Assembly (NCBI GenBank): GCA_034434015.1
Contig: DAOUAB010000229.1
Location: forward strand, 1-64,000
Direction of reading: 5' to 3'
DNA: 64,000 nt
Source: Anaerolineales bacterium
GTDB lineage: Bacteria > Chloroflexota > Anaerolineae > Anaerolineales > UBA6663
The notes below the pieces were generated by a model. That model saw only the letters and a program-made list of their open reading frames with translations. It did not search any database and was not told the origin of the DNA. Positions 5,340-52,791 of the stretch are shown here, piece by piece (position 1 is the stretch's first letter; each line of letters starts with the position of its first letter). The translations under genes and the position numbers were made by a program.

Positions 5340-5654
5340 ATGATGATCGCCACAGCCAAGACCCACCTCCTCGACGAACGGACCGCTGCGCAAGTCGCGG
5401 AACTGTTCCGCGCGTTCAGCGACTCCAGCCGAGTGCGCATCATCGCCGCCCTGGCCGATGGAGAAATGAACGTGAGCGCTCTGGCCCAGGCTGCCAACGT
5501 CAGCGAGTCGGCGGTTTCTCACCACATGCGCGGCCTGCGACAGATGCGCCTGGTCCGGGCCCGCAAGGAAGGGCGTCAGGTCTTTTACGCTCTGGACGAC
5601 GACCATGTGGCGGCGCTATTCCGGCAGGGGCTGGAGCACGTCCGGCATGGATAG
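5340..5654 (+). CDS. ArsR/SmtB-family metalloregulatory transcriptional repressor
   Basis: 104 aa winged-HTH; VSALAQAANVSESAVSHHMRGLRQMRLV is typical of ArsR; precedes a P1B ATPase. Confidence 0.85.
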   Translation: MMIATAKTHLLDERTAAQVAELFRAFSDSSRVRIIAALADGEMNVSALAQAANVSESAVSHHMRGLRQMRLVRARKEGRQVFYALDDDHVAALFRQGLEHVRHG

Positions 5655-5967
5655 TCCCCAGAGTAGACGCTGGGCGCTGGCCGTGATTATCGGCCTGGTC
5701 CTCGCCGGACTGATCGGCCACCTGCTCCTGGCGGCGGCCTGTCCGGCGCCGGAACGGGCCCGCCCCGCATGTCCGGATGTTTCCCAGGCAGCGGGCGAAC
5801 TCGACCCCGGGACGTGCGCCCTGCACGCCGGATTTCAAGCGCCGCTGGCAATCCCGCTAAGCCTTCCACTGGCCCTGGTGCTGTTGGCGTTGGTCTGGCC
5901 GCGCCCCCGCGATCCAGAGACGCCGCGTTTCGCCTTCTTCCGTCCCCCCGTCGCCCTCTCAGCCTAG
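5647..5967 (+). CDS. Small hypothetical membrane protein with Cys pairs (CPAPERARPACPD)
   Basis: ATG overlaps the arsR stop (ATGGATAG); one hydrophobic helix; lies between the regulator and the ATPase. Confidence 0.3.
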   Translation: MDSPQSRRWALAVIIGLVLAGLIGHLLLAAACPAPERARPACPDVSQAAGELDPGTCALHAGFQAPLAIPLSLPLALVLLALVWPRPRDPETPRFAFFRPPVALSA

Positions 5968-6056
5968 CGCCGCGCCTGCCGCCGGCGTCTGTATGTCTTG
6001 TGGCTCGCTTTCTGCCAGGGCGAGCCTGGAACTTGGTGTTGCTTTGGAGTGCCTGA

Positions 6057-8399
6057 ATGTCCGAGAAAACGATTGAACTGGAGATCCCCGTGCTCCTGCC
6101 CGGGGTCGAGACCGATGATGACAGTTGCCTGGACCGGCTGGAGGCGGCCCTGCGCCACCAGAGAGGCCTGCTGCGCGTTCACCTCGAGCGCGAGAAACGG
6201 CCGGTCACCCTGTGCCTGCACTATGACCCCAACCTGATGAGCGTCGCGGATGTGAAACGCGCCGCCCAGCGTGCCGGCGCCCAAATCGCCAACCGCTTTC
6301 ACCATGACCTGCTCGCCATCGAGGGCATGGACTGCTCCGATTGCATCAAGGTCATCGAGCACGGCGTGGGCCGAATGCCGGGCGTCCTGGCTGTGAGTGT
6401 GAATTACCCGTCGCAGAAGCTGCGGGTGGAGTACGACACGGAGGCCACCAGCCGCGCGGCGATTGAGAAGCGCGTGCGCGGGCTGGGCTACACCGTCGCC
6501 GCCGAGGGCTGGCGAAGCTGGTATCAGGAGAATCGCGAGATCCTGTTCAGCGTCACCGCCGGCGTCCTGGTCGCCATCGGCTGGGTGGGGGAGACGTTCC
6601 TCGGCCTGCCCGCCCTCGTGGCCACCGTGCTCTACCTGGCCGCCTATGTCTTTGGCGGCTGGGACGTGTCCCGCCACGCCTGGCATGCAGTGAAGGAGCG
6701 CCACTTCGATACCGATCTGCTCATGGTCATGGCCGCCCTCGGCGCCGCGTTCCTGGGTGAGTTCGCCGAGGGCGCCTTCCTGCTCTTCCTCTTCAGCCTG
6801 GGCCATGCGCTCGAAGAACGGGCGCTTGACCGCGCCCGTCAGGCGGTGCGGGCGCTGGCGGACCTGGCACCCAAGACTGCCCTGGTGAGACGCGGCGAGC
6901 GCGAACAGGAATTGCAGGTCGAGGAGCTGCGCCTGGACGACATCGTCGTGGTGAGGCCGGGCACCCGGATCCCGGTCGACGGGGACGTGCTCGCCGGGCA
7001 GTCGGCCGTCAACCAGGCGCCGGTCACGGGCGAGTCCGCGCCCGTGGACAAGGCGCCCGGCGACCGGGTCTTCGCCGGGACGGTGAACGGCGAGGGCGCG
7101 CTGGAGGTAAAAGTGACCCGGCTGGCCCAGGACAGCACCCTGGCGCGGGTCATGAAGATGGTCGAGGAGGCCCAGACCCAGAAGTCCCCAACGCAGCAGA
7201 CGGTGGAGCGCTTCGAGCGTGTGTTTGTGCCGGCGGTGCTCGTCATCACCCTGCTCGTGATCGCCGTGCCGCCCTTGTTTGGCGTGCCCTTCCAGGTGTC
7301 TTTCCTGCGGGCGATGACGCTTCTGGTCGCGGCCTCTCCGTGCGCCCTGGCGCTCGGCACGCCGGCCTCGATCCTGGCCGGGGTCGCGCAGGCCGCGCGC
7401 AACGGCGTTCTGGTCAAAGGCGGCGTCCATCTGGAGAATCTCGGCCGGCTCAAAGCCATCGCCTTCGACAAGACCGGCACCATCACCCACGGTCAGCCGG
7501 AAGTGACCGATGTCGTGGCGTTCGGCGCGCAACTGAAAGACACCCAGCTTCTGTCGATCGCGGGCGCTGTGGAAAACCGCTCCGGCCACCCGCTGGCGCA
7601 GGCCGTCGTGCGCGCGGCCCAAGGCAAAGGGCTGGCGCTTCCCGACCCGGGCGAGGTGGAGTCGCTGACCGGGCGCGGCCTGCGCTCAACCGTCAACGGC
7701 CAAGTGGTGCTGATCGGCAACCCTAAATTGATGGACGAGTCGAATGTGACCGTGTCAGCCGACGCGCAAGCCAGGCTGGAGTCGCTGCAAGGCGAAGGCA
7801 AGACCATCATGCTGGTGGCGGTTGACGGGACCCTGGCCGGCGTGATCGCGGTGGCCGACACGCTCCGCCTCGAGGCGGCGTCGGCGATGGCGGCCCTGAG
7901 GCACCTCGGCGTGCAGGAAACCGTGATGCTCACGGGCGACAACGCCCGGGTGGCGAAAGCGATTGCGGGGAAGGTCGGCCTGACCACCTTCCGCGCCGAC
8001 CTCCTGCCGGAAGACAAAGTGACCACGGTCCGCCAGTTGAATGAGAAGTTCGGTCAGACGGCGATGGTGGGCGACGGCGTAAACGATGCCCCCGCGCTGG
8101 CGAACGCGACCGTCGGCATCGCGATGGGCGGCGCCGGCACGGATGTGGCGCTGGAGACGGCCGACGTGGCCCTGATGGGCGACGATCTCTCGAAGCTGCC
8201 TTTCGCGGTTGGATTGGGCCGCGCCACGCGGGCCATTATTCAGCAGAACCTGTTCATCTCGCTCGGTGTGATCGCACTGCTGGTGATCGCCTCGCTTACC
8301 GGCTGGACCGGCATCGGGATCGCCATCCTGTTTCATGAGGGCAGCACGATTGTGGTAGTGCTGAACGCGCTCCGGCTTCTGGGCTATCGGGCCTCATGA
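6057..8399 (+). CDS. Heavy-metal translocating P1B-type ATPase (HMA N-domain GMDCSDC; TM6 motif SPC)
   Basis: 780 aa; N-terminal HMA CxxC, DKTGTIT phosphorylation site, GDGVNDAP hinge, SPC in TM6. Confidence 0.9.
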   Translation: MSEKTIELEIPVLLPGVETDDDSCLDRLEAALRHQRGLLRVHLEREKRPVTLCLHYDPNLMSVADVKRAAQRAGAQIANRFHHDLLAIEGMDCSDCIKVIEHGVGRMPGVLAVSVNYPSQKLRVEYDTEATSRAAIEKRVRGLGYTVAAEGWRSWYQENREILFSVTAGVLVAIGWVGETFLGLPALVATVLYLAAYVFGGWDVSRHAWHAVKERHFDTDLLMVMAALGAAFLGEFAEGAFLLFLFSLGHALEERALDRARQAVRALADLAPKTALVRRGEREQELQVEELRLDDIVVVRPGTRIPVDGDVLAGQSAVNQAPVTGESAPVDKAPGDRVFAGTVNGEGALEVKVTRLAQDSTLARVMKMVEEAQTQKSPTQQTVERFERVFVPAVLVITLLVIAVPPLFGVPFQVSFLRAMTLLVAASPCALALGTPASILAGVAQAARNGVLVKGGVHLENLGRLKAIAFDKTGTITHGQPEVTDVVAFGAQLKDTQLLSIAGAVENRSGHPLAQAVVRAAQGKGLALPDPGEVESLTGRGLRSTVNGQVVLIGNPKLMDESNVTVSADAQARLESLQGEGKTIMLVAVDGTLAGVIAVADTLRLEAASAMAALRHLGVQETVMLTGDNARVAKAIAGKVGLTTFRADLLPEDKVTTVRQLNEKFGQTAMVGDGVNDAPALANATVGIAMGGAGTDVALETADVALMGDDLSKLPFAVGLGRATRAIIQQNLFISLGVIALLVIASLTGWTGIGIAILFHEGSTIVVVLNALRLLGYRAS

Positions 8400-8797: not shown

Positions 8798-8806
8798 CCG
8801 GACGGA

Positions 8807-9430
8807 ATGGATATCTTTGAGAGTATCACGAACGGGATCGTCAGCGCCGGAGCAATTATCCTGCTGGGTGTGATCCTCGCGAGCTGGCTGGCGAGTTATC
8901 GCAGACCAAAGGCCAGGCCGGTTAGGTCGGGTGACTGGTTCTTCACGCTTCCCACGTGGGCGCAAATCGTCGGTGGAGTTGGTGCCTGCGTGCTCTTTGC
9001 CTATCTGGGCTATCTGTTGTGGCTTCCGCTCCCGCTGACTGTTTCGCCCCTCGTGTCATGGATATTGCAGGTTGCCGGGCTGGTGCTTTTTCTCGCGGGG
9101 TGGCTCCTGGTCTTGTGGGCGCGCTGGGCGCTCGGCGCGATGTATGGAGTCAGCACCAGTTTCGCCGCGCCGCTGCGAGCGCAACACCGGCTGATCCAGC
9201 ACGGGCCGTACGCGTTCGTCCGGCACCCGATGTACCTGGGCTACTGGCTTTTGCTGTTGGGCATCACCTTGGTGTACCGCGCGTGGACGCCGTTGTTGCT
9301 CCTGGTGATATGCCTGGCCTCGTTCTACAGGCGGGCACGGCGCGAGGAGCAAGTGCTAGCCGAGACATTCGGCGTAGAGTGGCAGGGCTACAAGGCAAGG
9401 ACAAAGTTTCTCATCCCCTGGGTGTATTGA
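8807..9430 (+). CDS. ICMT/PEMT-family membrane methyltransferase
   Basis: 207 aa multi-TM; HGPYAFVRHPMYLGYWL ... EEQVLAETFGVEWQGYKARTKFLIPW matches the isoprenylcysteine carboxyl methyltransferase family signature. Confidence 0.75.
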   Translation: MDIFESITNGIVSAGAIILLGVILASWLASYRRPKARPVRSGDWFFTLPTWAQIVGGVGACVLFAYLGYLLWLPLPLTVSPLVSWILQVAGLVLFLAGWLLVLWARWALGAMYGVSTSFAAPLRAQHRLIQHGPYAFVRHPMYLGYWLLLLGITLVYRAWTPLLLLVICLASFYRRARREEQVLAETFGVEWQGYKARTKFLIPWVY

Positions 9431-9465: not shown

Positions 9466-9912
9466 ATGAAACGACTCGCACTGTTCACCCTTCTCGTCGC
9501 GCTGTCCGCGATGTGGATCAGCGCCTGCGGCGCCGGCTCGTCCGGCCATGACCTGGAAATGGCACCAGCATCGGCCTTGCCGCAGAAGATGCAGGATGCT
9601 CCCACTCAGGTTCGCGAGGCCTATCAATTTGCGCTCGCCAACCAGGCGGTGCTGAAAAAGATCCCCTGCTATTGCGGTTGTGGTGTGGATGGGCACACCA
9701 GCGTCAAGGACTGTTTCGTTCAAGACGTTCGCGCCGACGGCACGGTGATCTGGGACGAAATGGGGCTGGGTTGAAGCATCTGCGTGGACATCGTGCGTGA
9801 CACGATGCGACTGATGCGGGAAGGCAAGTCGCTGGCCGAGATCCGCGCCTACGTTGACGGCTATTACAGCCAGTTCGGCCCGGCCACCGACACCGAACCG
9901 GTGACCCCATAG
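9466..9912 (+). CDS. PCYCGC-motif lipoprotein; in-frame TGA at 9772-9774 (candidate selenocysteine, U-x-x-C); ORF track stops at 9774
   Basis: RBS aggagag; lipoprotein signal MKRLALFTLLVALSAMWISAC; exact PCYCGCG motif. The frame continues after TGA for 45 more codons (SICVDIVRDTMRLM...), giving about 148 aa, the length of the PCYCGC domain. Hairpin catcgtg-CGTGA-cacgatg begins 14 nt after the TGA. Confidence 0.5.
9789..9807 (+). promoter_or_regulatory. Candidate bacterial SECIS-like hairpin (7-bp stem, apical loop CGUGA) 14 nt downstream of the in-frame UGA; outer gcatc/gatgc stem extends it
   Basis: Perfect inverted repeat read directly; GU in the apical loop. Confidence 0.4.
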
Positions 9913-9947: not shown

Positions 9948-10430
9948 ATGTCTCGCTCAACTCGACCCCAAACCAGACCTGTCGGGCCGCTCGTCCTGAT
10001 CGGCGTTGGCCTGACGCTTCTGATCGGTGCAATCCTGATAAGCCTAGGGCTCTCCCCAACCCCGACGGTACCCACGGCTCCCCTTCAAGATTCTGCCGAG
10101 GACACGTTTCCAGAAATTCCCCGCGTCAGCCTCGCCGACGCCCGGACCGCCTTTGATGCCCAGTCCGCCGTGTTCGTGGACGTACGCGAGCCCGACCCTT
10201 ATACCGCCGGCCACATCCCGGGCGCGCGGTCTCTCCCGTTAGCGGAACTCGAGAGCCGCCTCGGCGAACTCAGCCGTTCGGATTGGATCATCACCTACTG
10301 CACCTGACCGGCCGAGGAGTCCAGCGCCCGTGCGGCGCGCATTCTCCTTGACAACGGCTTTACTAAGGTCACACCGATCCTCGGCGGCTTCCGCGCCTGG
10401 ACGGAAGCGGGTTATCCAGTGGAGCCGTAA
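9948..10430 (+). CDS. Membrane-anchored rhodanese-domain sulfurtransferase; in-frame TGA at 10305-10307 aligns with the catalytic Cys position (candidate Sec-rhodanese); ORF track stops at 10307
   Basis: Rhodanese fold residues HIPGARSLP ... IITYCT-[TGA]-PAEESSARAARILLDNGFTKVTPILGGFRAWTEAGYPVEP continue in frame to TAA at 10428-10430. Spacing U-x6-ARAA matches catalytic C-x6 in GlpE-type rhodaneses. Hairpin gcgcc-CGTGC-ggcgc lies 16 nt after the TGA. Confidence 0.55.
10324..10338 (+). promoter_or_regulatory. Candidate SECIS-like hairpin (loop CGUGC) downstream of the rhodanese in-frame UGA; outer gaggag/ctcctt pairing possible
   Basis: Same loop core CGUG and similar spacing as the hairpin after the first in-frame UGA. 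Confidence 0.35.
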
Positions 10431-10503: not shown

Positions 10504-11094
10504 ATGAAACTGTTTCTGCTACTTTATTTCAGCGCCTTCTTCCTCACCGCTTTCGTGTGGCGCTCTTTCCTGGTCTGGAAACGTACAGGCGTGAACCCAT
10601 ACCAACTTGGGAACACCGACAGCGCCCATGACTTCGTCGGCCGGCTTTTCAGGCTGACCATGATTGTGATTGCCGTCATCGTCATCACCTATGCAGCTTC
10701 GGATAGCGCCTATGAGTTGTTGACCCCAATCCCATGGCTGGGCCATCCGTTGCTGACGTGGGTTGGGACGGTACTGCTCGTGCTGGCGCTGGTCTGGATG
10801 CTGATCGCGCAGGCACAGATGGGGAATGCCTGGCGCATCGGTATTGACGCTGACACAAGGACAGAACTCGTGCAGACCGGCCTGTTCGCTGTCTCGCGCA
10901 ACCCGATTTTCCTCTCGATGCTGGTGATGCTGCTTGGCCTGCTTCTCGTCCTGCCTAGCGCCGCGAGCCTGGCGGTCAGCGTATTGGGCGCGGCGCTGAT
11001 TCACATTCAAATCCGGCTCGAAGAGGAGCACCTGGCCCGATTACATGGGGAAGCCTATCGCGCCTATTGCCGCCGCGTGCGGCGCTGGCTGTAG
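10504..11094 (+). CDS. ICMT/PEMT-family membrane methyltransferase (second copy)
   Basis: 196 aa; TGLFAVSRNPIFLSMLVMLLG ... EEEHLARLHGEAYRAYCRRVRRWL. The track ORF's N-terminal extension (10330-10503) overlaps the rhodanese frame and is likely spurious. Confidence 0.7.
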   Translation: MKLFLLLYFSAFFLTAFVWRSFLVWKRTGVNPYQLGNTDSAHDFVGRLFRLTMIVIAVIVITYAASDSAYELLTPIPWLGHPLLTWVGTVLLVLALVWMLIAQAQMGNAWRIGIDADTRTELVQTGLFAVSRNPIFLSMLVMLLGLLLVLPSAASLAVSVLGAALIHIQIRLEEEHLARLHGEAYRAYCRRVRRWL

Positions 11095-12182: not shown

Positions 12183-14936
12183 ATGAAGGCGCGCCGGCAT
12201 TTTCTCATCGTGTGGGTGGCGGTCAGCGCATTGGCACTGCTCTGGGCGAGGGCGATTCCAGCCTTCGCCCATGCCGTGCTCCTCTCCGCTGACCCGGCCC
12301 CCAACACCCTCCTCGACACCGCGCCGGCTCAAGTTCGGCTTCTTCTGACCGAGCCGGTGGCGCCCGCCTTTAGCCGGATCGCCGTCTTCGACCAATCCGG
12401 CCGGCAAGTGGACAACGGCGATTTGAAATCGGACAGCGACGATGGCACGGCGCCCGTCGTGACTCTGCCCCCGCTTTCCAGTGGGACGTATCTCGTCAGT
12501 TGGGAAGTGCTCTCCACCGTGGACGGCCACACGACCAGCGGCAGTTTTCCGTTCGGGGTGGGAGTTGCCCAACTGACCTCCGCGCCCGGCTCGGTTTCAT
12601 CCACCGCGCAGCGGCCGACCCCGTTCAGCACCGGCGCGCGCTGGTTCAACCTGACCGGACTCGCGTTACTACTGGGCCTCCTCACCTTCCGCCTGTTGGT
12701 CTGGAACCCGGCCTTCAAGGGCGTTGAGCTGAATGAAGCCGATGAGCGACTTGACTTGGCATTTGGACGCGCGAGCCTGAAAGTGGGCATCGCCGGGTTA
12801 GCGTTGGTGGGATTGGGCTTGATTTTTACCCTGATCGCGCAGGCCGCCAGGATAAACCTGTTGAGCTTCGACAACCTGAGAACTTGGCTGGGTACGCAAT
12901 TCGGCTCACTGTGGTTGGTTCGCTTTTTAGTGACGACGACGGTGGGCTTTGCCATGGCAGATCTATACGTCGGGTTGGGAGAAGGCCGTCGAGGCTTACG
13001 CGGCTGGGAATGGTGGGCCGGACTGGCGGCGTTGATTGGCCTCGCGCTGACAACCGCCTTGGTGAGTCACAGCGCCGCCCTTACTCAGGATACCCAACAG
13101 GCCATCGCGGTGGATGTCGTGCATGTCCTGGCTGCCGGGGTCTGGGTGGGGGGCCTGCTTCAACTGGCGCTTGGGCTGTGGATGGGACGGTCATTCCCGG
13201 CGAACTCGCGGGCGTGGCTCAACTTGAGCCTCTCGCTCAACTTCTCGGCGCTGGCGGCGGGCGCGGTGGGCGCGCTGCTGGTCAGCGGAAGCTACCTGGC
13301 CTGGAAACACGTCGGGAGTTGGACCGCGCTCTTCGGCACAGCGTATGGCCTGACCTTGCTCGCCAAGCTAGCGCTGGCTGTGCCCGCCTTCAGCATCGCG
13401 GCGGTCAATCTCTTGATCATCAAGCCCAGGCTGGACGCGGCCCTCGACCATCCCGAAGCAGCTTCGGCGCTCACGCTGCAACAGCGCTTTGGGCGGCTGG
13501 TGCGCGCGGAAGGTGTATTCGCCTTGCTGGTCCTCGCCGCGGCCGGCCTACTCACCGACCTGCAACGCGGGCAAGATGCGCCCCTGCTGTCCAGCCAGGC
13601 CGAGAAGGTCACGCTGGCGCAACCCGCCGAAGACTTGAACATCTCGCTCAGCCTCGAACCGGCGCTCGTCGGGCAGAACACGTTTGATGTGTACGTGACG
13701 GATGCCAGCGGCCAGCCGGTCGCGGACGCCAAAGAAGTATCGCTGCGTTTCACGTTCTTGGGCCAATCCATCGGCACGGCCGAAGCCAACGCGCCATCAT
13801 CCGGCGATGGACATTACCGCGTGGATGGCGGCTATCTGAGTCTGGCAGGGCCGTGGCAGGTGGAAGTCGCGGTGCGCCGTTCCGAGGCGTTCGACGTTTT
13901 CGCCGCATACCGCGTGGAAGCCGGTCTGAGCGGGGCGATTCAGCCGGTAGGTGGGCAGGCCGGTCTGATTGAGCAACTAACCAAGTTCCTGACCCGCAGC
14001 GGCGGCGCGGCGACGGGCGTCTTTCTCGTGTTGTTCGCCGTCACCTGGTCACTCCTCGCCGGCCGCGCCGCGAAGGAGGACTGGCAGTTGGTGCTGCTAT
14101 TCCTGCCGAGCCTGCTTGCTTTTTGGATTGGGGGAGTCCAGCTGTTCACCTTCGTCCGCGAGTTCACGCCCGCGAAGTTTGTGACCAATCCCATCTTGCC
14201 CGACTCGGCCTCCATCACGCGCGGGCAGGAACTCTACCAGGCCAACTGTGTGACGTGTCACGGCCCGGAAGGGCGCGGCGATGGCCCAGGGGCCATTGGC
14301 CTCACCCCGCCGCCCGCCGACTTCACCGCCGGGCATACGGAGAGCCACCCGGATGGCGACCTGTATTATTGGATCAAAGAAGGGATCAAGGACACCGCCA
14401 TGCCAGCGTTCGGAGACCAGTTCGACGATGAAGACATTTGGCACTTAGTCAACTACGTCCGCCGGTTGAGCGCACAGGAATACCAACCACCCGGGCCCGG
14501 CACATCATCGCCAGGGGTCAGTGATTCGCAGGCTGTGCTGTTCTTGCAGCAAGTCGAGGGAGTGATGAATCAGTTCGCCTCCATGGAGGCAGTGGAAGTA
14601 CTTCGCGATGACAGTGGCGTCGTGACCGCTACCATAATCGCATATCCCCATTTCAATTTCAGCCGTGAGGCCATTGACGTGCAGTTTGGGCCGACGAGCG
14701 AGTTGAGTGGTCAAAGCCAAGCCCGGCAGACCGTCACATTTGCCGTCGGGACTGGCGACTTGCGCTATGACTACGTCTTGGAGGTGGACCCCGCCACGCT
14801 GCGGATTGTCCGCTGGACAATGGATGGACCGAATCACCACATGATGACCGAATACACGACCTATCATCTGCCCGCAACCGTCACCCCGCCATCGGAACTG
14901 TTTGCGCCTACGGCCACGCCCATCGGTACTCCTTAG
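12183..14936 (+). CDS. CopC-CopD fusion (YcnJ-like) with C-terminal mono-haem cytochrome c domain
   Basis: N-terminal CopC fold (signal peptide, AHAVLLSADPAPNTLL...); about 8 TM CopD region; C-terminal CVTCHGPEGRGDG CxxCH with downstream Met ligand region. Confidence 0.85.
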   Translation: MKARRHFLIVWVAVSALALLWARAIPAFAHAVLLSADPAPNTLLDTAPAQVRLLLTEPVAPAFSRIAVFDQSGRQVDNGDLKSDSDDGTAPVVTLPPLSSGTYLVSWEVLSTVDGHTTSGSFPFGVGVAQLTSAPGSVSSTAQRPTPFSTGARWFNLTGLALLLGLLTFRLLVWNPAFKGVELNEADERLDLAFGRASLKVGIAGLALVGLGLIFTLIAQAARINLLSFDNLRTWLGTQFGSLWLVRFLVTTTVGFAMADLYVGLGEGRRGLRGWEWWAGLAALIGLALTTALVSHSAALTQDTQQAIAVDVVHVLAAGVWVGGLLQLALGLWMGRSFPANSRAWLNLSLSLNFSALAAGAVGALLVSGSYLAWKHVGSWTALFGTAYGLTLLAKLALAVPAFSIAAVNLLIIKPRLDAALDHPEAASALTLQQRFGRLVRAEGVFALLVLAAAGLLTDLQRGQDAPLLSSQAEKVTLAQPAEDLNISLSLEPALVGQNTFDVYVTDASGQPVADAKEVSLRFTFLGQSIGTAEANAPSSGDGHYRVDGGYLSLAGPWQVEVAVRRSEAFDVFAAYRVEAGLSGAIQPVGGQAGLIEQLTKFLTRSGGAATGVFLVLFAVTWSLLAGRAAKEDWQLVLLFLPSLLAFWIGGVQLFTFVREFTPAKFVTNPILPDSASITRGQELYQANCVTCHGPEGRGDGPGAIGLTPPPADFTAGHTESHPDGDLYYWIKEGIKDTAMPAFGDQFDDEDIWHLVNYVRRLSAQEYQPPGPGTSSPGVSDSQAVLFLQQVEGVMNQFASMEAVEVLRDDSGVVTATIIAYPHFNFSREAIDVQFGPTSELSGQSQARQTVTFAVGTGDLRYDYVLEVDPATLRIVRWTMDGPNHHMMTEYTTYHLPATVTPPSELFAPTATPIGTP

Positions 14937-44349: not shown

Positions 44350-44772
44350 ATGTTGTTGACGGCAGATAAGACGGGTCTGGAAGTCAAGGCCAAACTCTTT
44401 CGGGGGTTCGGAGATCCCTCGCGCCTGGGCATCCTGGATGCCCTGCGCAGCGGGCCGCTGACCGTGAGCGAGATCGTCGAGGCCACCGGCCTCTCCCAAT
44501 CCAATGTCTCTAATCACCTGGGCTGTCTGCGCGACTGTGGGCTGGTGATAGCTGAACAAGAGGGCCGCTACGTCACTTACCATCTGAGCGATGACCGCGT
44601 GGGTGAACTATTGGCTCTGACCGAGTCGCTCCTGGCGGATGTGGCGCGCGGTGTCTACGAATGCACCCGCTACAACATCCGGGCTGCGGAATCTCAGCCG
44701 ACCCAGGCATCCAGAGTTCATACGGGTCGGCGGATCCCGCGCCGGGCACTTCGCGGACGGGCACGCGCCTGA
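44350..44772 (+). CDS. ArsR/SmtB-family metal sensor, CmtR-like (CLRDCGLV alpha4 Cys pair plus C-terminal Cys)
   Basis: [33 protein letters not shown]; C-terminal YECTRY. Confidence 0.85.
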   Translation: MLLTADKTGLEVKAKLFRGFGDPSRLGILDALRSGPLTVSEIVEATGLSQSNVSNHLGCLRDCGLVIAEQEGRYVTYHLSDDRVGELLALTESLLADVARGVYECTRYNIRAAESQPTQASRVHTGRRIPRRALRGRARA

Positions 44773-44794
44773 CGCGCGCACGGTTACGAACTGC

Positions 44795-45550
44795 ATGAGC
44801 ACTCCGCTTGAGATGTCACCGTCCCGCCGCAACGCCATTGTCGCCAACCGGCTGGTGTTAGGGCTCAGCCGCAATTGGGTGGCAACCTTTATCACGTTCT
44901 TCGGGATATTTATCACCCTCCCGTGGCTGGCGCCGGTATTCATGAAGGTGGGCGCAACCGGCCTGGCGCGCGCGATCTACTTCATTTATTCCTTCGAGTG
45001 TCACCAACTGCCTGAGCGAGCCTACTACTTATTCGGCATGAAATCCATGTACTCGCTGGCCGAGATTCAGGCAGCCTGGCAGCCAACCAATAATCCCCTC
45101 CTCCTGCGCCAGTTCATCGGCAATCAGCAGTTAGGTTACAAGGTGGCGTGGTGTGACCGGACGACTGCGATGTATGGCGCGATTTGGCTCCTGATACTCG
45201 TCTGGCGGCCTTTGAGCAAACGGCTGCGCCCGCTGCCGCTGTGGGCTTTTGCCCTGCTCACCTTCCCCATTGCCATAGACGGCGGCACCCACTTTATTAG
45301 TGACCTGATGGGACTTGGAGTTGGGTTCCGCGAAACGAACGTCTGGCTGGCGGCGCTGACGGCGAATGCCTTTCCGCTTTGGTTTTATGCTACCGACGTC
45401 ATCGGCTCGTTCAATTGGTGGATGCGGTTGCTGACCGGCTTCCTGTTCGGCCTTGGCCTGGTCTGGCTGGCCTACCCTCAAGCCGAAATCTTCTTTGCTG
45501 AAGCGGCGGCCCGGATCGACATGAAGTTGCGGATGGCAGGCGTGCGTTGA
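44795..45550 (+). CDS. DUF2085-family membrane protein
   Basis: FECHQLPERAYYLFG motif; multiple TM; immediately downstream of the CmtR-like gene. Confidence 0.6.
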   Translation: MSTPLEMSPSRRNAIVANRLVLGLSRNWVATFITFFGIFITLPWLAPVFMKVGATGLARAIYFIYSFECHQLPERAYYLFGMKSMYSLAEIQAAWQPTNNPLLLRQFIGNQQLGYKVAWCDRTTAMYGAIWLLILVWRPLSKRLRPLPLWAFALLTFPIAIDGGTHFISDLMGLGVGFRETNVWLAALTANAFPLWFYATDVIGSFNWWMRLLTGFLFGLGLVWLAYPQAEIFFAEAAARIDMKLRMAGVR

Positions 45551-45613
45551 GGATCGTGCGTAGGCCTTTTTATTTTGGTGCGTTATATCATCATTTGATA
45601 ATGTGATAACTCG

Positions 45614-46126
45614 ATGTTGGCAGGCATGGTAATGGATAGAAAACTCAAAGCCGTTTCAGGAGTGTTACTGGGACTGCTGCTGGCGTTGGTCGCGGACAGC
45701 GTGTCCAAACTCTGGGCGGAGCAAACGCTTCGCCTTCATCGGCCTGTGCCGATATTGGGTGACATGTTCCGTCTCACGCTTAGCTATAACACCGGCGTGG
45801 CATTCGGGCTGTTTGCCAACGGCGGCATCTGGCCGCTCGTCATCACCGGCCTCATCATCATTGGCCTGGCGGTCTGGCTGGTGAACACCCTCCGCAGCGG
45901 CGAACAGACTCGTGCGGCGGCCTGGCCCATCGGGCTGATTCTCGGCGGGGCGATTGCCAACTTCGCCGACCGCCTGCCGGATGGCCGCGTCACCGATTTC
46001 CTCGACCTGGGCCTCGGCACGGCCCGCTGGCCGACTTTCAACCTGGCGGACAGTTTCATCGTGCTGGGTCTGATCCTTCTGCTCATAGCTGGACGCATTC
46101 CGAAAGCTTCGCCAGACAGCGAATAA
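45614..46126 (+). CDS. lspA: Lipoprotein signal peptidase II
   Basis: NTGVAFG and FNLADSFIV catalytic-Asp motifs; 4 TM. Confidence 0.85.
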   Translation: MLAGMVMDRKLKAVSGVLLGLLLALVADSVSKLWAEQTLRLHRPVPILGDMFRLTLSYNTGVAFGLFANGGIWPLVITGLIIIGLAVWLVNTLRSGEQTRAAAWPIGLILGGAIANFADRLPDGRVTDFLDLGLGTARWPTFNLADSFIVLGLILLLIAGRIPKASPDSE

Positions 46127-46581
46127 TGCCTGCAATGAATTGGCGACCGCACCGGTTCACCGTGATCTCGTTTGCTCTATTGCTGCTAGATCAGGCTTTT
46201 GACCTGGTCGTGGAATTTGCCCTGCCGGAAGGCGCGTCCCGCCTGTTCATTCTCGGACGGATGGGGATCACACGGCCCGTCAGCCCTGGCAGTGCGATGC
46301 TTGATACCGCCTCCTTTTTTGTTGTGTTGACGATTATCGGTGTGCCCTTCTTGTGGTGGTACAAGCGCCACATTGTCCCCGACGCCCTCTATCGTACCGC
46401 AGTGGCAGTTTTTCTCGGGGGACTGCTGGGCAACCTGGCCGATGGCTGGCGAGTCGGCCATCCGGTCGATTACCTGCGTGCCGGTGTCCCCTTTAATCTG
46501 GCCGACGTGGCCCTGGTGATGGGAGCAGTCTTGCTGTTCTATCGGATGTTGAGGCCACTCCGAGGGTTACAGGGGGGGTGA
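46126..46581 (+). CDS. Signal peptidase II paralog
   Basis: GNLADG and FNLADVALV motifs; start overlaps the upstream stop. Confidence 0.65.
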   Translation: MPAMNWRPHRFTVISFALLLLDQAFDLVVEFALPEGASRLFILGRMGITRPVSPGSAMLDTASFFVVLTIIGVPFLWWYKRHIVPDALYRTAVAVFLGGLLGNLADGWRVGHPVDYLRAGVPFNLADVALVMGAVLLFYRMLRPLRGLQGG

Positions 46582-46588
46582 AGAGACC

Positions 46589-47215
46589 ATGTTCCTGAGA
46601 AGCATGGTTCTGCTCCTGCTTGCACTGGTGGCCGTCAATCTGTGGTGGCGCTGGGCGAGCCGTCGCCGCTCGCTCCCCTGCCCCACATGGCTGGCTGGGT
46701 TTGTGGATGGCCCTGTGATGGATAGAGTCCTGGGCACGCAGACTACCCTGGATCGCATTGGGCTGCGACCTGGCTATCGGGTGCTCGAAATAGGGCCGGG
46801 GCCCGGTCGGCTGCTCATCCCGGCCGCCCGGCGTGTGCTACCCGGCGGCGAAGTCGTCGGCCTGGATATCCAGCCGGGGATGATTGAACGGCTCAAAGCG
46901 CGGGCGGCGCAGGCCGGTGCGTCGAACCTGACGACGAGTGTGGGCGATGCGACGCAACCGCATTTTCCACCAGATAGTTTTGACGTGATTTATTTCTGCA
47001 CGGTACTGGGCGAAATCCCGAACCGTGAAGCGGCGTTGCGGCAGTGTTATGCGGCGCTCAAATCTGGCGGCCAGCTTTCGATCACGGAAATCTTTCCCGA
47101 CCCACACTACCAATCCCGCGCGACAGTGAAACGATTGGCAGAGGCGACGGGCTTTCGACTACAAGCCATGCCCGGGCCGTGGTACTTTTTCTCGGCGAAC
47201 TTTGTGAAAGCATAG
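46589..47215 (+). CDS. Class I SAM-dependent methyltransferase (N-terminal TM)
   Basis: Motif I VLEIGPGPG; motif II/III DVIYFCTVLGEIPN. Confidence 0.8.
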   Translation: MFLRSMVLLLLALVAVNLWWRWASRRRSLPCPTWLAGFVDGPVMDRVLGTQTTLDRIGLRPGYRVLEIGPGPGRLLIPAARRVLPGGEVVGLDIQPGMIERLKARAAQAGASNLTTSVGDATQPHFPPDSFDVIYFCTVLGEIPNREAALRQCYAALKSGGQLSITEIFPDPHYQSRATVKRLAEATGFRLQAMPGPWYFFSANFVKA

Positions 47216-47241
47216 CCGGTTCGTTGGCACAGAGTCTTAGA

Positions 47242-47835
47242 ATGAGCCAAACGTTTTTCCACAGCGTCTTTGTCGTCTTCTTCACGCTGTTTGCCGCGAT
47301 CCGTGTGTATTTCCAGTGGCGCGCCCGGCTAGTGCAGGGGCAGGTTGAATACAAAGAAGGTAAGCTGAATATCGCCTTGCGCGCCCTCATTGGCGCAATA
47401 TTTTTCCTCGATGTCTTACTCTACATCGTTCGCCCGCAGGTCCTGGCGTGGGCGGAACTGCCGCTGCCGCAATGATTGCAGTGGCTGGGCGTTGTGCTGG
47501 GCATAGTCAGTCTTCCCCTCCTCGCGTGGACGCAGCAGGCCCTGGGGAGCAATTTTTCGCCGACGCTCCATGTGCGCCGGGAGCATAGGCTGGTGACCAG
47601 CGGGCCTTATCGCTACATGCGCCACCCGATGTATACGGCATTGTTTCTGTCCATGGCGGCGATTCTACTGCTGACGCGGAGCTGGCTCGTCGGCGGTGTT
47701 CCGCTCGTCGGCCTGTGTGTGATCGTGCTCCTGCGCGTCGAGCGTGAAGAGCGCGTGATGATCGGGAAATTCGGCGACGCGTATCGCGACTATATGAAAC
47801 GCACCGGACGATTTTTGCCTCGGGTGATACGTTGA
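47242..47835 (+). pseudogene. ICMT/PEMT-family methyltransferase interrupted by in-frame TGA at 47473-47475
   Basis: N-terminal TM half (MSQTFFHSVFVVFF...) and C-terminal catalytic half (GPYRYMRHPMYTALFL...EERVMIGKFGDAYRDYMKRTGRF) are in the same frame separated by a single TGA. The aligned position in paralogs is a hydrophobic residue, not Cys. No downstream hairpin seen. Confidence 0.5.
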
Positions 47836-48164
47836 AAGGCGGCGATGCCCAACCGCTAACTATGTCTACAGTTATTACTCGAAGTGGAAATAAGTCAGAA
47901 GGTACGACATTAAGCCAGAATACTCGGTGGCGGCTACCGGGGATCGAGCAATTCCAGGCCGTGCAGACCAAGCCGACGAACCTGCGTGTGTGCCTGCGTT
48001 TCGCGCACGGCTCTGACCCGGGCCGCGTCTGGAAGGCAGTGCATACCGAACTCACGCGCCTGCTCGCCAGGTACAAGCTCGACCACGTCACGGTCGAGTA
48101 CGCTGAGGAATTACCGGAGCAGTCCCTTGGCGGCAAGTACCGCGAGATCATCCCGATGGAATAA
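47832..48164 (+). CDS. Hypothetical protein; weak resemblance to the cation-efflux (CDF) C-terminal cytoplasmic domain
   Basis: TTG start; ...RVCLRFAHGSDPGRVWKAVHTELTRLL...DHVTVE; low confidence, possible gene remnant. Confidence 0.25.
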   Translation: MKGGDAQPLTMSTVITRSGNKSEGTTLSQNTRWRLPGIEQFQAVQTKPTNLRVCLRFAHGSDPGRVWKAVHTELTRLLARYKLDHVTVEYAEELPEQSLGGKYREIIPME

Positions 48165-48169
48165 GAAAG

Positions 48170-50296
48170 ATGAACACCAAACAACTCGAACTTCGTGTTG
48201 CCAACCTCGATTGCGAACATGATGCAGCCAACATTGAGCGTGGCCTGCAAAGCTTCGCGGGGCTGACTGGGCTAAAGGTCTATCCGAAATCCGCCAAAGT
48301 CACATTGACCTACGATCCGGCGCTGACCCGGCCCGAAGCCTTGAAAGAAAAGCTGGAAGCGCTCGGCTTTCCACCGCAAAAGGGCATGGAGATGGCCGAG
48401 CAGCCTAAACCCTGGCGCAACCCCAAGGTGCTCACGTCGGCTGCGTCGGGTGTGCTGTTGCTCGCCGGCTGGCTCATCGGGCTGGCTGGCGCACCAGAGA
48501 TTGTCTCAACCGTCATTTATGTTGCCGCCATCCTCATCGGCGGATATTTCTTTGGCCGGGAAGCCATCGAAGAGTTGATCTTCGAGCGCGAGATCGGCAT
48601 TGAGCTGCTTATGAGCGTGGCTGCTGTCGTGGCGATGATCATGGGCCAGGCCGCCGAAGGCGCCATGCTGGTCTTCCTGTATTCCATCAGCGAAGCGGCT
48701 GAAGGTTACACGGAAGAGAAAACCCGTGCGGCGATCAAGGCGCTGATGAACCTGGCGCCGAAGGTCGCGCTGGTCCGGCGCGATGGGGTCGAGCGTGAGA
48801 TCCCGGTCGAAGAACTGGAAGTGGGCGACGTGTTCATCGTCAAGCCGGGACAGTCCGTCGCCACGGACGGCGTGGTGCTCGTCGGCGCTTCCAGCATGAA
48901 CCAGGCCCCGGTCACGGGCGAGAGCGTGCCGGTGGAGAAGCAGCCCGGCGACACAGTGTTCGCGGGCAGCATCAACGGCGAGGGTGCGCTGGAAGTCCGG
49001 GCGACCAAGACCTTCGCCGAGAACACCATCGCGCGCATCATCCACATGGTCGAAGAGGCCCAGGAGAAGAAAGGCAGGAGCCAGCGCTTCATCGAACGCT
49101 TCGGCGCGCGCTACAGCCCGGCGGTGCTGCTTATCGGAATTCTCATCGCCGCGATTCCGCCGCTGTTCTTCAGCGCCGATTGGACGACCTGGATCACCCG
49201 CGCCACGGTCTTCATCGTGGCCGCCGCCCCGTGTGCCCTGGTCATCTCGATCCCCATCACCCTGGTGGCTTCACTCGGCACGGGCGCGCGCCAGGGCGTG
49301 CTCATCAAGGGCGGCGTCTACGTCGAAGAACTGGCGAAAGTAAAGGTGGTGGCGCTGGATAAGACCGGCACGCTGACGAGAGGCGAACCGGAAGTAACCG
49401 ATGTGGTGCTCTGCCGCACCGACCCGGATCAACCTACGACTTCTGCCCAAGAAGTGCTGGCGGTAGCGGCTGGCATCGAGCGGCGCAGCGGTCATCCCCT
49501 GGCGCGGGCTATCGTCCGCCATGCTGAGCAGCAGACAGTTGCTCCAGCGGAACTGGACAGCTTCCGGTCGCTGACCGGGGCGGGGGCGTCGGCGCGCCTG
49601 GACGGGCATACCGTATACGTCGGCAGCCCGGACCTGTTTCACGCCCGCCTGGGCGTCTCTTTGCATGGCGCGTGGGACGACATTCAACAGCTTCAGGGCG
49701 AAGGCAAGACCGTGGTGGTCGTCGGCGACGAGCAGGCGCCGTGGGGCCTGATCGCCATCCGCGACAACATCCGCCCGAATGCGCGCAAAGCGATTGACGC
49801 GCTGCACGCGGCGGGCGTTCAGAAGGTTGTGATGCTCACCGGCGACAACGAACGCACCGCACAGGCCATCGCCCGAGAGTTGGGCATTGACGAGGTATAT
49901 GCCGACTTGAAGCCGGAAGACAAACTGGTGAAAGTGCGCGAGCTGTCTCAGCGACATGGCCACGTCGCGATGGTGGGCGACGGGGTGAACGATGCTCCGG
50001 CGCTGGCCGAAGCGACCGTGGGCGTGGCGATGGGCGCGGCGGGCACGGACGTGGCGCTGGAAACCGCCGACGTGGCCCTGATGGCAGACGATCTGGAGAA
50101 GCTGGCTTACGCGCTCCGGTTGGCGAAGCGCAACCAGTCGGTCGTGAACCAGAACCTGGGGCTGTCGGCCCTGGTGATCGGCGCGTTAGTCGTTGGCGCG
50201 GTCGCCGGCGTCTTCTCCCTGCCTATCGCCGTACTGGGCCACGAGATCAGCGAGTTCGTCGTCATCGGTAGTGGCTTGCGGATGCTGCGGGCCTGA
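48170..50296 (+). CDS. Heavy-metal P1B-type ATPase (degenerate HMA N-domain; TM6 motif APC)
   Basis: [28 protein letters not shown]. Confidence 0.9.
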   Translation: MNTKQLELRVANLDCEHDAANIERGLQSFAGLTGLKVYPKSAKVTLTYDPALTRPEALKEKLEALGFPPQKGMEMAEQPKPWRNPKVLTSAASGVLLLAGWLIGLAGAPEIVSTVIYVAAILIGGYFFGREAIEELIFEREIGIELLMSVAAVVAMIMGQAAEGAMLVFLYSISEAAEGYTEEKTRAAIKALMNLAPKVALVRRDGVEREIPVEELEVGDVFIVKPGQSVATDGVVLVGASSMNQAPVTGESVPVEKQPGDTVFAGSINGEGALEVRATKTFAENTIARIIHMVEEAQEKKGRSQRFIERFGARYSPAVLLIGILIAAIPPLFFSADWTTWITRATVFIVAAAPCALVISIPITLVASLGTGARQGVLIKGGVYVEELAKVKVVALDKTGTLTRGEPEVTDVVLCRTDPDQPTTSAQEVLAVAAGIERRSGHPLARAIVRHAEQQTVAPAELDSFRSLTGAGASARLDGHTVYVGSPDLFHARLGVSLHGAWDDIQQLQGEGKTVVVVGDEQAPWGLIAIRDNIRPNARKAIDALHAAGVQKVVMLTGDNERTAQAIARELGIDEVYADLKPEDKLVKVRELSQRHGHVAMVGDGVNDAPALAEATVGVAMGAAGTDVALETADVALMADDLEKLAYALRLAKRNQSVVNQNLGLSALVIGALVVGAVAGVFSLPIAVLGHEISEFVVIGSGLRMLRA

Positions 50297-50330
50297 GGAG
50301 GAAGAGTATATCAACGGGATTGAGGAGCGT

Positions 50331-50684
50331 ATGCGACTTATCGCCAGCAGAGAAGTCATAGACCTGCGCACCAAACTGTTACGGGGCTTCGCCGACCCGC
50401 CCCGGCTCTTAATCCTGGAGCCCCTCCGAGCCGGACCATTGACGGTGAGCGAAATCGCAGAGGCAACCGGCCTTGCACAATCGGATGTCTCTGCTCATAT
50501 CGCCTGTTTGCGCGACTGCGGCCTCGTGATCGAGATACCGCAGGGACGCTCCGGTTACTATGAGTTGAGTGACAGGCGCATCGGGCAATTCCTGCGTCTC
50601 ATCGATGAATTATTGGTAGACGTGGCAAAGGGCGTGTCCGAATGCGCGCGCTACAATTCCCCACAGGAGCCCACGCATGGATAA
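50331..50684 (+). CDS. ArsR/SmtB-family CmtR-like metal sensor (paralog of 44350-44772)
   Basis: RBS gaggag; [12 protein letters not shown]; C-terminal SECARYN; overlaps the downstream ATPase start. Confidence 0.85.
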
Positions 50685-52791
50685 ACTTCAAACCCTCACG
50701 ATTCCAATCGCTGGTATGGACTGCGCCGAATGCACTCAGCATGTCCAGCACGCTATTGCCGCTGTGCCGGGCGTTGAGTCCGTCAACGTCTTTTTGTCTT
50801 CCGAGAAAGCCGTTATTCGGCTCGACCCGGCGCGGGTGAGTTTGCCCGCCCTCCGCAAGGCCGTCGCCAGCGCCGGAAACTATTCGGTGCCGGAGTCAGT
50901 CGCAACGCCGGCTGCCCCGCCTGGGTTGAACGATTTCACTCGCCGGGTGGTCACACTCTTAGCCGTCGTGTTCGGTGCAGTGTTGTTCGTCATCGTCGTC
51001 GGCGAGTGGCTGGGCCTGTTCGAGCGCATCACCGAACTGGTGCCTTTCCCCATCGGGGTGCTGTTGGTCATCCTCGGCGGATGGCCCATCTTCCGCAACG
51101 TCCTGCGCGCCGCCCTCAAGCGGCAGGTCACCTCACACACGCTGATGACACTCGGCGTGCTGGCCGCGCTGGCCATCGGGCAGTGGGCGACGGCCGCTGT
51201 TGTCGTCTTCTTTATGCGCGTCGGCGATTACGCCGAAAGCTTCACCACCGAACGCGCCCGCCGCGCGGTGAAAGACCTGACGGCGATGGCCCCGCAAACG
51301 GCCCGCGTCGAGCGGGATGGTGTAGAAATCGAAGTTCCGATTACCGAAGTGAGCGTCGGCGATACCGTCATCGTCCGGCCTGGTGAGAAAATCCCGGTGG
51401 ATGGCGAAGTCACGTCGGGACAGGCCACCGTGGATCAGGCAACCATCACGGGCGAGTCCATGCCAGTCGAGGCCGGCCCCGGTGCGAGAGTGTTTGCCGC
51501 GACCATTGCCAGGCTGGGCAGTTTGCGAGTCCGGGCCACCCATGTTGGGGCCGATACCACTTTTGGTCGCGTTATCAAGATGGTAGAAGAGGCCGAAGCG
51601 CACCGGGCCGATGTGCAGCGCTTCGCCGACAAGTTCACGGCCTATTATCTGCCGATGGTCGCGGGCCTGGCCGCAATCACTTTCCTCATCAGCCGCAACC
51701 CGTTGTCCACCGCCGCCGTGCTGGTCGTGGCGTGTTCCTGCTCCATCGCACTGGCCACGCCGATTGCGATGCTGGCCTCGATCGGGGCCGGCGCGAAGCG
51801 CGGCCTGCTCATCAAGGGCGGCAAATACATCGAGACGTTGGCGCACGCCGACGTACTCCTGATTGACAAGACCGGCACGCTCACCCTCGGCCAGCCGCAA
51901 ATCACCGACGTGATTCCATTGAACGGACTATCCACCTCGGAGGTGCTCGCGCTGGCCGGGTCTGCCGAACGCTACTCGGAGCATCCGCTGGCCGAAGCGG
52001 TGCGCGTGGCGGCTCGTGCCCGGAATCTACCGTTGGCCGAACCCCAAGATTTTGAAGCCATCCCCGGCATGGGTCTGCGCGCGAAGGTGGATGGAAGCAT
52101 CGTGACGGTGGGCAACCGCCGTCTCATCCCCATGGCTGAGTCGCTATCTATAGCCCACGCTTTCGAAGCGCAGGGCAAGACACTCTTGTTTGTGGCGCGC
52201 AATGATGAACTCGCGGGGGTGTTAGCTGCCGCCGATACTCTGCGCCCCGAGGTGCCTGCGGCACTGAACGCTGTGCGCGCTTTAGGTGTGCCGCAAGTTG
52301 AGCTGCTCACCGGTGACAACGAGCGCACAGCTGCCGCGCTCGCTGACAAGCTCAGCGTAAGGTATCGCGCCAATCTTCTCCCCGAAGACAAGATTGCGGT
52401 GGTGAAAGCGTATCAGGCGCAAGGCCGCACTGTGGTGATGGTGGGCGACGGAGTGAACGATGCACCGGCATTGGCGCAGGCAGATGTGGGCATCGCAATG
52501 GGCGCGGCGGGAACCGACATCGCCATCGAGGCCGCCCACATCGCGCTGATGCGCGACGACTGGGCGCTTGTTCCAGAGGTCTTTCGCATCGCGCGGCGGA
52601 CGATGCAGGTGGTCAAAATGAACCTGGTCTTCACCGCCATTTACAATGTGGCGGGGCTGACGCTGGCCGCCTTTGGCTTCCTGCCGCCCATCTTTGCCGC
52701 CGCCGCGCAATCTCTGCCGGATTTGGGCATCCTGGCGAATTCGTCGCGGCTGCTGCGGGTGCATTCGCAGATTTTGGCCGGTCGGGAGTAG
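50677..52791 (+). CDS. Heavy-metal P1B-type ATPase with HMA domain (GMDCAEC) and atypical TM6 motif CSC
   Basis: [13 protein letters not shown] in place of CPC; DKTGTLT; GDGVNDAP. Confidence 0.9.

Follow-up and report, generated by a model that had tools for sequence, protein, structure and literature searches.

Which metals do the three P1B ATPases encoded on one Anaerolineae contig export, and which sensors control them? We examine this question in a window of 64,000 nucleotides, the whole stretch of DNA analysed here (contig DAOUAB010000229.1 of an Anaerolineales bacterium, assembly GCA_034434015.1, positions 1 to 64,000). DKTGT sites occur only three times in the window, once in each of the ATPases A1 (6057-8399, 780 aa), A2 (48170-50296, 708 aa) and A3 (50677-52791, 704 aa). 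All three are encoded on the forward strand, contain E1-E2_ATPase, Hydrolase and HMA domains and are consistent with the usual 4 + 2 + 2 helix layout, as judged from hydropathy and alignment coverage. An earlier reading, made from the letters alone (the sequence-only reading), had listed them with the motifs SPC, APC and CSC in helix M4 and called these motifs non-canonical. The open reading frames (ORFs) are indeed complete and the motifs lie at the positions reported, but each motif is normal for its own lineage: CSC is found in 120 of the 120 closest relatives of A3, APC in 120 of the 120 closest relatives of A2, and SPC together with HEGxT is the P1B-4 signature. Judged by motifs and tree position, all three pumps are typical of lineages that have been named or characterised; A1, and largely A2, fall in well-characterised clades, but A3 does not. 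That the three pumps handle different metals, as had been suggested, is probably right. We consider it fairly probable that the window carries an Anaerolineae metal-efflux set made of two sensor and pump units, with the metals and operators described below. The identity of the genes, the motif columns, clade membership, paralogy and the recurring module are observed; the operon, the operators and all sensed or exported metals are deduced, each substrate by analogy. Domain calls come from Pfam and NCBIfam/TIGRFAM profiles, structure comparisons use PDB sequences aligned with HMMER, all pump placements use unrooted neighbour-joining (NJ) trees with bootstrap, and L139 to L146 are working labels of related loci outside the window.

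We begin with unit 1, an ordinary Zn/Co-type sensor followed by a P1B-4 pump. The sensor ArsR1 (5340-5654, forward strand; Pfam HTH_5, NCBIfam HTH_metalloreg) is an ArsR/SmtB repressor without any cysteine. In the PDB, ArsR1 matches SmtB best (84 bits), then CzrA (69-71 bits). Its α5 site, D87-x-H89-x10-H100-x2-H103, fits the ligand set D-x-H-x10-H-x2-(H/E) of CzrA/SmtB-type α5 sensors, and its four residues align with D84/H86/H97/H100 of CzrA and D104/H106/H117/E120 of SmtB. Because all four of these columns are kept, ArsR1 is predicted to be a Zn(II)/Co(II) sensor for A1 rather than a CmtR. A candidate operator, the perfect 14-nt palindrome AGATATGCATATCT (5304-5317, unstranded, read from the sequence), overlaps the -10 region of a promoter-like site that has TTGACA at 5280-5285 and a 17-nt spacing. 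ArsR1 would sit on this palindrome, overlapping its own promoter, and would leave it upon binding Zn(II) or Co(II), so that A1 is de-repressed.

The pump of unit 1 is, by alignment and motifs, a standard P1B-4 ATPase. P1B-4 enzymes are defined by SPC in M4, HEGxT in M6 and eight helices (eLife structure paper, PMC8880997). A1 has SPC at residues 427-429 (nt 7335-7343), in a stretch LVAASPCALALGTP that is in the same register as LVAASPCALAIATP of sCoaT from Sulfitobacter (PDB accession code: 7QBZ), and HEGST at residues 760-764; with these two motifs and the M2 Glu it is like sCoaT and other P1B-4 pumps (CzcP, CtpD/CtpJ). The match to sCoaT (600 bits) is its best in the PDB, ahead of ZntA (483) and CopA (395), and covers the eight-helix core, sCoaT residues 42-675; the two are 54% identical and form a clade with 100% bootstrap. 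What sets A1 apart from sCoaT is an N-terminal extension of about 150 aa that holds one classical HMA domain (GMDCSDC, residues 90-96) and a second HMA-like segment. P1B-4 members with extended N-termini may carry heavy-metal-binding domains (PMC8880997), and A1 is such a member. We predict, by analogy with these pumps, that A1 exports Zn/Cd/Co. M. tuberculosis NmtR-CtpJ is a known pair of an α5 ArsR sensor and a P1B-4 pump, and a pair of an α5 ArsR and an SPC/HEGST pump is also found in L145 and L146; SPC pumps adjoin CSC pumps in L140 and L141. The window differs from other such pairs in a small membrane ORF between regulator and pump (5647-5967, forward strand, 106 aa, called as a gene in four samples), which overlaps the end of ArsR1, precedes A1 and is predicted to have two transmembrane helices with Cys/His between them. 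This ORF has zero Pfam matches, and a counterpart is absent beside the SPC pumps of the other loci examined.

We turn next to unit 2 (44310-52791), in which all genes (44350-52791, 8.4 kb) are co-directional with gaps of at most 81 nt or overlaps. Their order is CmtR-like A, DUF2085, two LspA genes, an S-adenosylmethionine (SAM)-dependent methyltransferase, a broken ICMT gene, a gene remnant, A2, CmtR-like B and A3. We infer from this spacing one long transcript, to which an internal promoter may contribute; a promoter and terminator scan of 44-53 kb gives nothing above shuffled expectation. CmtR-like A (44350-44772) and CmtR-like B (50331-50684), both on the forward strand, are ArsR repressors and, as the sequence-only reading had noticed, close paralogs, with 56% identity and CLRDCGLV in each. 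That reading had also placed an ArsR gene next to each ATPase. This stands for A1 and for A3, whose start is overlapped by CmtR-like B by 8 nt; it does not stand in the same way for A2, because the only adjacent ArsR gene, CmtR-like B, starts 35 nt downstream of A2, while an ArsR gene directly upstream is absent and CmtR-like A lies 3.4 kb upstream.

The cysteines of the two regulators indicate the kind of sensor. Cys59 and Cys63, a C-x3-C pair in the recognition helix, align with Cys57 and Cys61 of M. tuberculosis CmtR (PDB accession code: 2JSC), and Cys105, in GVYECTRY of CmtR-like A, lies 42 residues past the pair, equivalent to the 41 residues that separate C102 from the pair in CmtR. The CmtR site consists of two α4 Cys and one C-terminal Cys (PMC11672702), and CmtR-like A and B both have this arrangement. 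An operator-like inverted repeat, ATATCAT-N14-ATGATAT (44310-44337, unstranded), ends 13 nt upstream of the start codon of CmtR-like A at 44350; the window holds no second copy, and the number expected by chance is 0. In L143 and L145, related ATATCA...TGATAT elements precede the CmtR-like genes at the same position, and variants are found in L139-L141. Further upstream, a perfect 11-2-11 palindrome (44227-44250), TATCGGCGCCA-CA-TGGCGCCGATA, separates the promoter of CmtR-like A from the end of an anti-sigma (DUF5667/DUF5666) gene; it may serve as a binding site or form a terminator hairpin.

The pump A3 poses the central problem. By its motifs it is a typical member of P1B-7, a subfamily that Smith, Smith and Rosenzweig are said to have defined in 2014. 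A3 contains an HMA domain with GMDCAEC (residues 13-19), CSC in M4 (residues 353-355, nt 51733-51741), YN in M5 (residues 656-657) and QSLPD in M6 (residues 678-682). The family is coherent: all of the 120 closest relatives have VACSCS in M4 and YN in M5, and QSxPD in M6 and YN are family-wide motifs. Homologues on plasmids of Shinella, Diaphorobacter, Streptomyces and M. abscessus have the same motifs at 60-68% identity. The equation of SPC with P1B-4 and of CSC with an uncharacterised P1B-7, which the sequence-only reading had made, agrees with the literature (PMC8880997, PMC13460109); CSC is there the P1B-7 marker, with the substrate listed as unknown (PMC13460109). Neither the P1B-1 nor the P1B-2 signature describes A3: from the P1B-1 set (CPC, YN, MxxSS) it has YN, with CSC in M4 and QSLPD in M6, and against the P1B-2 set it has Gln at the position of ZntA D714 in the ungapped register from the ANxxRLL anchor. 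In this register M6 position -9 is Met in CopA, Asp714 in ZntA, His in sCoaT and A1, His in A2 and Gln in A3, and position -5 is Ser in CopA, Thr in ZntA, Thr in sCoaT and A1, Glu in A2 and Asp in A3. Among 1.84 billion cluster representatives that were searched, the CSC pumps fall inside a larger clade (95% bootstrap), whose M6 has (Q/H/E)xxPD, whose M4 has CPC, CAC or CSC and whose M5 has FN or YN. This wider clade (P0367-P0384) is apparently unnamed.

The next question is "which regulators accompany the CSC pumps in other genomes?" In four of the four contigs examined (L139-L142) a CmtR-like gene stands directly upstream of the CSC pump. All six aligned regulators that adjoin CSC pumps have the three Cys, and four more at APC operons (L143-L146) are alike by inspection. 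From metagenomes we fetched 120 loci with a CSC-specific DNA pattern, 85 of them with enough upstream sequence. About 40 of these 85 have an ArsR-family gene on the same strand within 700 nt upstream of the pump, 5 further loci have a divergent copy of the CLSDCD type, and the remaining loci have varied neighbours; C-x3-C and a C-terminal Cys are found in at least 26 of the 42 ArsR-family genes by these metagenome pumps. On the Shinella, Streptomyces and M. abscessus plasmids the CSC pump adjoins a divergent three-Cys regulator of the MerR type, on which the CueR, CadR/PbrR, MerR and ZntR models score alike. CSC pumps thus stand beside three-Cys sensors in three phyla, a pairing that suggests a soft divalent substrate (Cd/Pb/Hg/Zn), Cu(I) being less probable. 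On the M. abscessus (L011, 5826-6230) and Streptomyces (L014, 5870-6598) plasmids a gene for a conserved hypothetical protein, ...WQPEY(A/T)HLPARLA.L.LPPNGDESYHIHAH..., follows the CSC pump; it has no counterpart in the window.

Because CSC pumps are repeatedly coupled to a three-thiolate sensor, and in Anaerolineae also to a CtpG-like pump, we infer that the substrate of A3 is a soft divalent cation (Cd, Pb, Hg or Zn), which would pass through a site of Cys2 + Asp (+ Tyr/Asn/Gln). The competing proposal is that A3 and the whole CSC group are Cu(I)/Ag(I) pumps derived from CopA-type enzymes, with the adjoining CmtR-like repressor sensing Cu(I)/Ag(I) or acting broadly. This proposal is unlikely in our judgement, and it deserves a careful hearing, for several observations weigh on its side. 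The best PDB matches of A3 are CopA proteins (420 bits, vs 349 for ZntA and 338 for sCoaT), the score on the Cu-ATPase model TIGR01511 (442) passes its cut-off of 397, and A3 keeps the YN of Cu pumps together with a classical HMA domain. In the unrooted tree the central split, a bipartition with 100% support, puts the wider C-x-C/PD clade together with CopA-like sequences. In Diaphorobacter and Shinella, the gene before the proteobacterial relative encodes a CopZ-like HMA protein, and genes for PCu(A)C, SCO, DsbB and thioredoxin lie around it; the CSC pump of L139 lies within a copper gene neighbourhood. Two further points count against our own reading of A3: the MerR-type partners fall below every NCBIfam equivalog cut-off, with one of them best against CueR, and a recognisable regulator immediately upstream is missing from roughly half of the CSC loci from metagenomes.

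On the other side, MxxSS, the Cu(I) signature of M6, is replaced in the CSC pumps by QSxPD, which bears a carboxylate, and A3 scores higher on the Cd-family model TIGR01512 (468), where it also passes the cut-off. A three-thiolate site of the CmtR kind and, in MerR-type proteins, a Cys at the position equivalent to ZntR C79 mark sensors of +2 ions, and the regulators beside the CSC pumps are of these two kinds. In L139 a canonical CopA (CPC/MAFSS) adjoins the CSC pump, which would then be a second Cu exporter at that locus, and the gene string around A3 in the window holds a CtpG-like pump, not CopCD genes. We therefore keep to a soft divalent cation as the substrate of A3. Whether this extends to the subfamily is a more tentative matter: it is possible, at somewhat less than even weight, that P1B-7 pumps in general are exporters of soft divalent cations (Cd, Pb or Hg) with a Cys2 + Asp site (CSC in M4, PD in M6), controlled by three-thiolate sensors (of the CmtR type in Chloroflexota, of the MerR type in Actinomycetota and Alphaproteobacteria), and working in Anaerolineae in tandem with a CtpG-like APC pump within a conserved operon (CmtR-like gene, LspA, methyltransferase, APC pump, DUF2085, CSC pump).

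How firm is the link of A2 to CtpG, on which part of this argument leans? M. tuberculosis CtpG has APC for CPC, a metal-binding domain without CxxC and repression by CmtR, and confers specific Cd tolerance (2026 review, PMC13460109). The combination that the sequence-only reading had noted in A2 is hence already known from a relative. The CtpG sequence (P0243, 771 aa; also P0298, named CtpG) was recovered by a search with a partial Mycobacterium pump; a degenerate DNA pattern over genome contigs gave 120 actinobacterial cmtR loci in 8-kb stretches, with the partner pump in 4. CtpG has AAAPCAL and HEFTE, and it scores best with A2 (438 bits, 44% identity), followed by A1 (394), sCoaT (384) and ZntA (310). 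A2 itself has APC at residues 353-355 (nt 49226-49234) and HEISE in M6 (residues 691-695). The suspicion that APC might come from a mis-alignment does not hold, since HMMER sets AAAPCAL of A2 in the same column as AASPCAL of sCoaT and GCPCAL of ZntA. A2 fits the CtpG-like signature of [A/S]PC in M4 and HE-x-[ST]-E in M6, and does not fit the P1B-2 signature (CPC, M5 Lys, M6 Asp), with Ile in the ZntA K693 column and His in the D714 column. The A2 and CtpG clades group as sisters at 84% NJ bootstrap, a value that is 46% in a tree without CtpG itself. From the similarity to CtpG and this clade support, A2 probably belongs to a lineage that is sister to CtpG, with which it shares the diagnostic signature.

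The A2 lineage has features of its own. The 120 closest relatives are 82-100% identical to A2, and all have AAAPCAL and HE(I/L)SEF. In the N-terminal HMA domain (E 1.2e-8), NLDCEHD (residues 12-18, nt 48203-48223) takes the place of GMxCxxC; CxxC is thus missing, as had been noted, but the description of the domain as degenerate fails, since NLDCEHD is invariant in the same 120 relatives. This invariance therefore suggests a conserved Cys/His/Asp metal site, alternative rather than degenerate. Plasmids carry relatives in Manganitrophus (76% identity), Defluviicoccus (68%), a Planctomycetes isolate (63%), Legionella (57%) and Rubrobacter (55%). APC is present in the three of these homologues that were translated (Manganitrophus, Rubrobacter and Legionella), and the Rubrobacter one adjoins a Cys-rich (CVC) ArsR. 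Compared with cmtR-pacL2-ctpG of M. tuberculosis, then, A2 is alike in APC, in HE-x-(S/T)-E, in a ferredoxin-like metal-binding domain without CxxC and in a three-Cys CmtR-type repressor in the operon. It differs from CtpG in forming a distinct clade, in which conservation across many Anaerolineae is 82% or more and which also occurs on plasmids of Manganitrophus, Defluviicoccus, Legionella and Rubrobacter, and in its invariant NLDCEHD; its operon has LspA, DUF2085 and methyltransferase genes in place of PacL/DUF1490.

By analogy with CtpG, A2 most likely exports Cd(II), perhaps Zn or Pb. It might instead be a broad Zn/Co/Cd pump of the P1B-4 type, not a Cd-specific analogue of CtpG, with the Ser-to-Ala change in M4 neutral. 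We regard this as doubtful, and again the observations divide. The M6 His-Glu of A2 aligns with H657/E658 of sCoaT and the M2 Glu is kept as well; sCoaT is the best PDB match (432 bits, vs 393 for ZntA); A2 and A1 are 48% identical; and the CtpG orthologues (n=120) have SPC in 108 cases and APC in 12, an interchange by which the first residue of the motif is not decisive. The tie to CtpG has its own weak points, namely the modest values of identity and bootstrap given above and the PacL (DUF1490) partner, which was not found upstream of A2. However, A2 falls in its own clade with 92-100% support and groups with CtpG, not with sCoaT and A1. In M6 it has HE-x-S-E and not HEGxT; the additional carboxylate is shared with HEFTE of CtpG. 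Moreover, its operon is headed by a thiolate sensor of the CmtR type, while the window has a separate unit with an α5 sensor and a P1B-4 pump. Cd(II) thus remains our preferred substrate for A2.

There are also points that speak against the CmtR-like sensors as drawn here: both miss the cut-off of 150 of the NCBIfam CmtR equivalog NF047906 by far (A 73.7 bits, B 62.2 bits), identity to M. tuberculosis CmtR is about one third (by eye, over the aligned core), B matches NmtR slightly better than CmtR in the PDB, the C-terminal Cys lies within the conserved, structured-looking GVYECTRY and not in an evidently flexible tail, and the operator-like repeat was searched for before CmtR-like B and A2 and none was found, of which the lack before B counts here. 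Thiol-based persulfide sensors do exist in the ArsR family (BigR/SqrR). Still, that these proteins sense another signal (Zn, Hg, thiol oxidation or persulfide) with a convergent Cys arrangement is quite improbable, as the C-x3-C pair occupies the exact CmtR columns, the three Cys are kept across orthologues that always neighbour metal pumps, and the BigR model scores lower still (29-35 bits). In the mechanism that we propose, the CmtR-like repressors would bind the ATATCA...TGATAT operator and would dissociate when a thiophilic metal of the Cd/Pb type bridges their three thiolates; A2 would then export Cd(II), perhaps Zn or Pb, and A3 a soft divalent cation.

The arrangement of unit 2 is not confined to this window. 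In L143 and L144 we find a CmtR-like gene, LspA, two methyltransferases, a 453-aa gene, the APC pump, DUF2085 and the CSC pump, with DUF2085 placed between the two pumps; in L145 and L146 an α5 ArsR and an SPC pump stand next to a CmtR-like gene, LspA, a methyltransferase, the 453-aa gene, a second CmtR-like gene and the APC pump. LspA after the CmtR-like genes, and the SAM methyltransferase, are kept in all four loci. A module of CmtR-like gene, LspA, methyltransferase and APC pump, with or without DUF2085 and the CSC pump, therefore recurs in other Anaerolineae.

The accessory genes of unit 2 in the window, all on the forward strand, are as follows. After CmtR-like A come a DUF2085 membrane protein (44813-45550), two tandem genes for signal peptidase II, LspA (45632-46126 and 46126-46581; Pfam Peptidase_A8), and a class I SAM-dependent methyltransferase (46589-47215; Pfam Methyltransf_25/31/11). 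The ICMT/PEMT-family methyltransferase gene that follows (47242-47835) is split by an in-frame TGA at 47473-47475 (...AELPLPQ*LQWLG...). Because the split gene calls are identical in other samples, a read error does not explain this TGA, which is either a true nonsense codon or a site of recoding, and the gene is a probable pseudogene. Between it and A2 lies a C-terminal remnant (47961-48164, in the ORF 47832-48164) that matches the C-terminus of the 453-aa protein of L145, with the shared motif ...IPGIEQFQ...GGKYRE(V/I)IP. The ORF has no Pfam match; its assignment as a CDF C-terminal domain was considered and dropped, as the intact 453-aa homologue shows otherwise. The intact protein, of 453-470 aa (L143-L146; for example L145, 5043-6404), is encoded between the methyltransferase and the APC pump, has no Pfam match either, and looks by eye like an adenylate-forming enzyme. 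Other ICMT/PEMT-family membrane methyltransferase genes lie near the metal pumps as well: apart from 47242-47835, they are found at 8807-9430 and 10504-11094 in the window, and beside the CSC pump on the Diaphorobacter plasmid (L012, 3241-3729). Downstream of A1, a gene for a PCYCGC-motif protein (9466-9774) and a rhodanese gene (9948-10307) both lie between the two ICMT-family genes.

A known system with a comparable gene content is the pbr operon of Cupriavidus metallidurans, where the PbrA pump is co-transcribed with the prelipoprotein signal peptidase PbrC (PMC3431237). Unit 2 is alike in having a P1B pump for a thiophilic metal together with signal peptidase II genes. It differs in that the regulator is of the ArsR/CmtR type and not the MerR-type PbrR, in that the pump has APC and not CPC, and in that the PbrB phosphatase, PbrT and PbrD are absent.

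We finally consider the setting of the two units. The window has a high G+C content (0.59-0.68), several samples contain metagenome contigs, up to 246 kb long, with the same gene order and exact protein copies, and the closest named relatives of the window proteins are from Anaerolineae/Chloroflexota metagenome-assembled genomes. A single island holding all three pumps, as the sequence-only reading had described it, is not demonstrated: A1 is about 40 kb away from A2 and A3, with housekeeping-like genes within the interval. The interval also contains copper-handling genes, two two-component systems, Band_7, a rotamase, an ABC transporter and FTR1. At 12183-14936 there is a gene for a 917-aa fusion of CopC, CopD, YtkA and cytochrome c domains, followed by DUF3105, DUF305, LpqE-like and SPW-domain genes and a two-component system; the fusion gene and its neighbours look like a copper-handling cluster. 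Mobile-element-like genes stand at both flanks of the region (374-4451 and 52823-54365), with an IstB gene and two tyrosine-integrase genes on the left and, directly 3' of A3, a zinc-ribbon ORF and a 410-aa ORF that matches UPF0236/DUF6431 (transposase-like) weakly.

As a protein, A3 has nothing that sets it apart from other P1B-7 ATPases: it shares CSC with them in a tight clade of 60-83% identity across Chloroflexota, Actinomycetota and Pseudomonadota. What is new is the context, that is, the recurrent CmtR-like partner, the tandem with APC pumps and the nesting in the (Q/H/E)xxPD clade. In all other respects the metal-resistance genes of the window are what one would expect in an environmental Chloroflexi bacterium. 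The APC clade, extremely conserved and plasmid-borne in several phyla, including Legionella plasmids, may be an under-recognised mobile determinant of Cd resistance. For P1B-7, whose substrate is listed as unknown in reviews up to 2026, the pairing of a CSC pump with a three-Cys sensor and a CtpG-like pump gives a concrete and cheaply testable hypothesis. If P1B-7 pumps are indeed exporters of soft divalent cations, the window would be a ready-made system for assigning the function of this subfamily.

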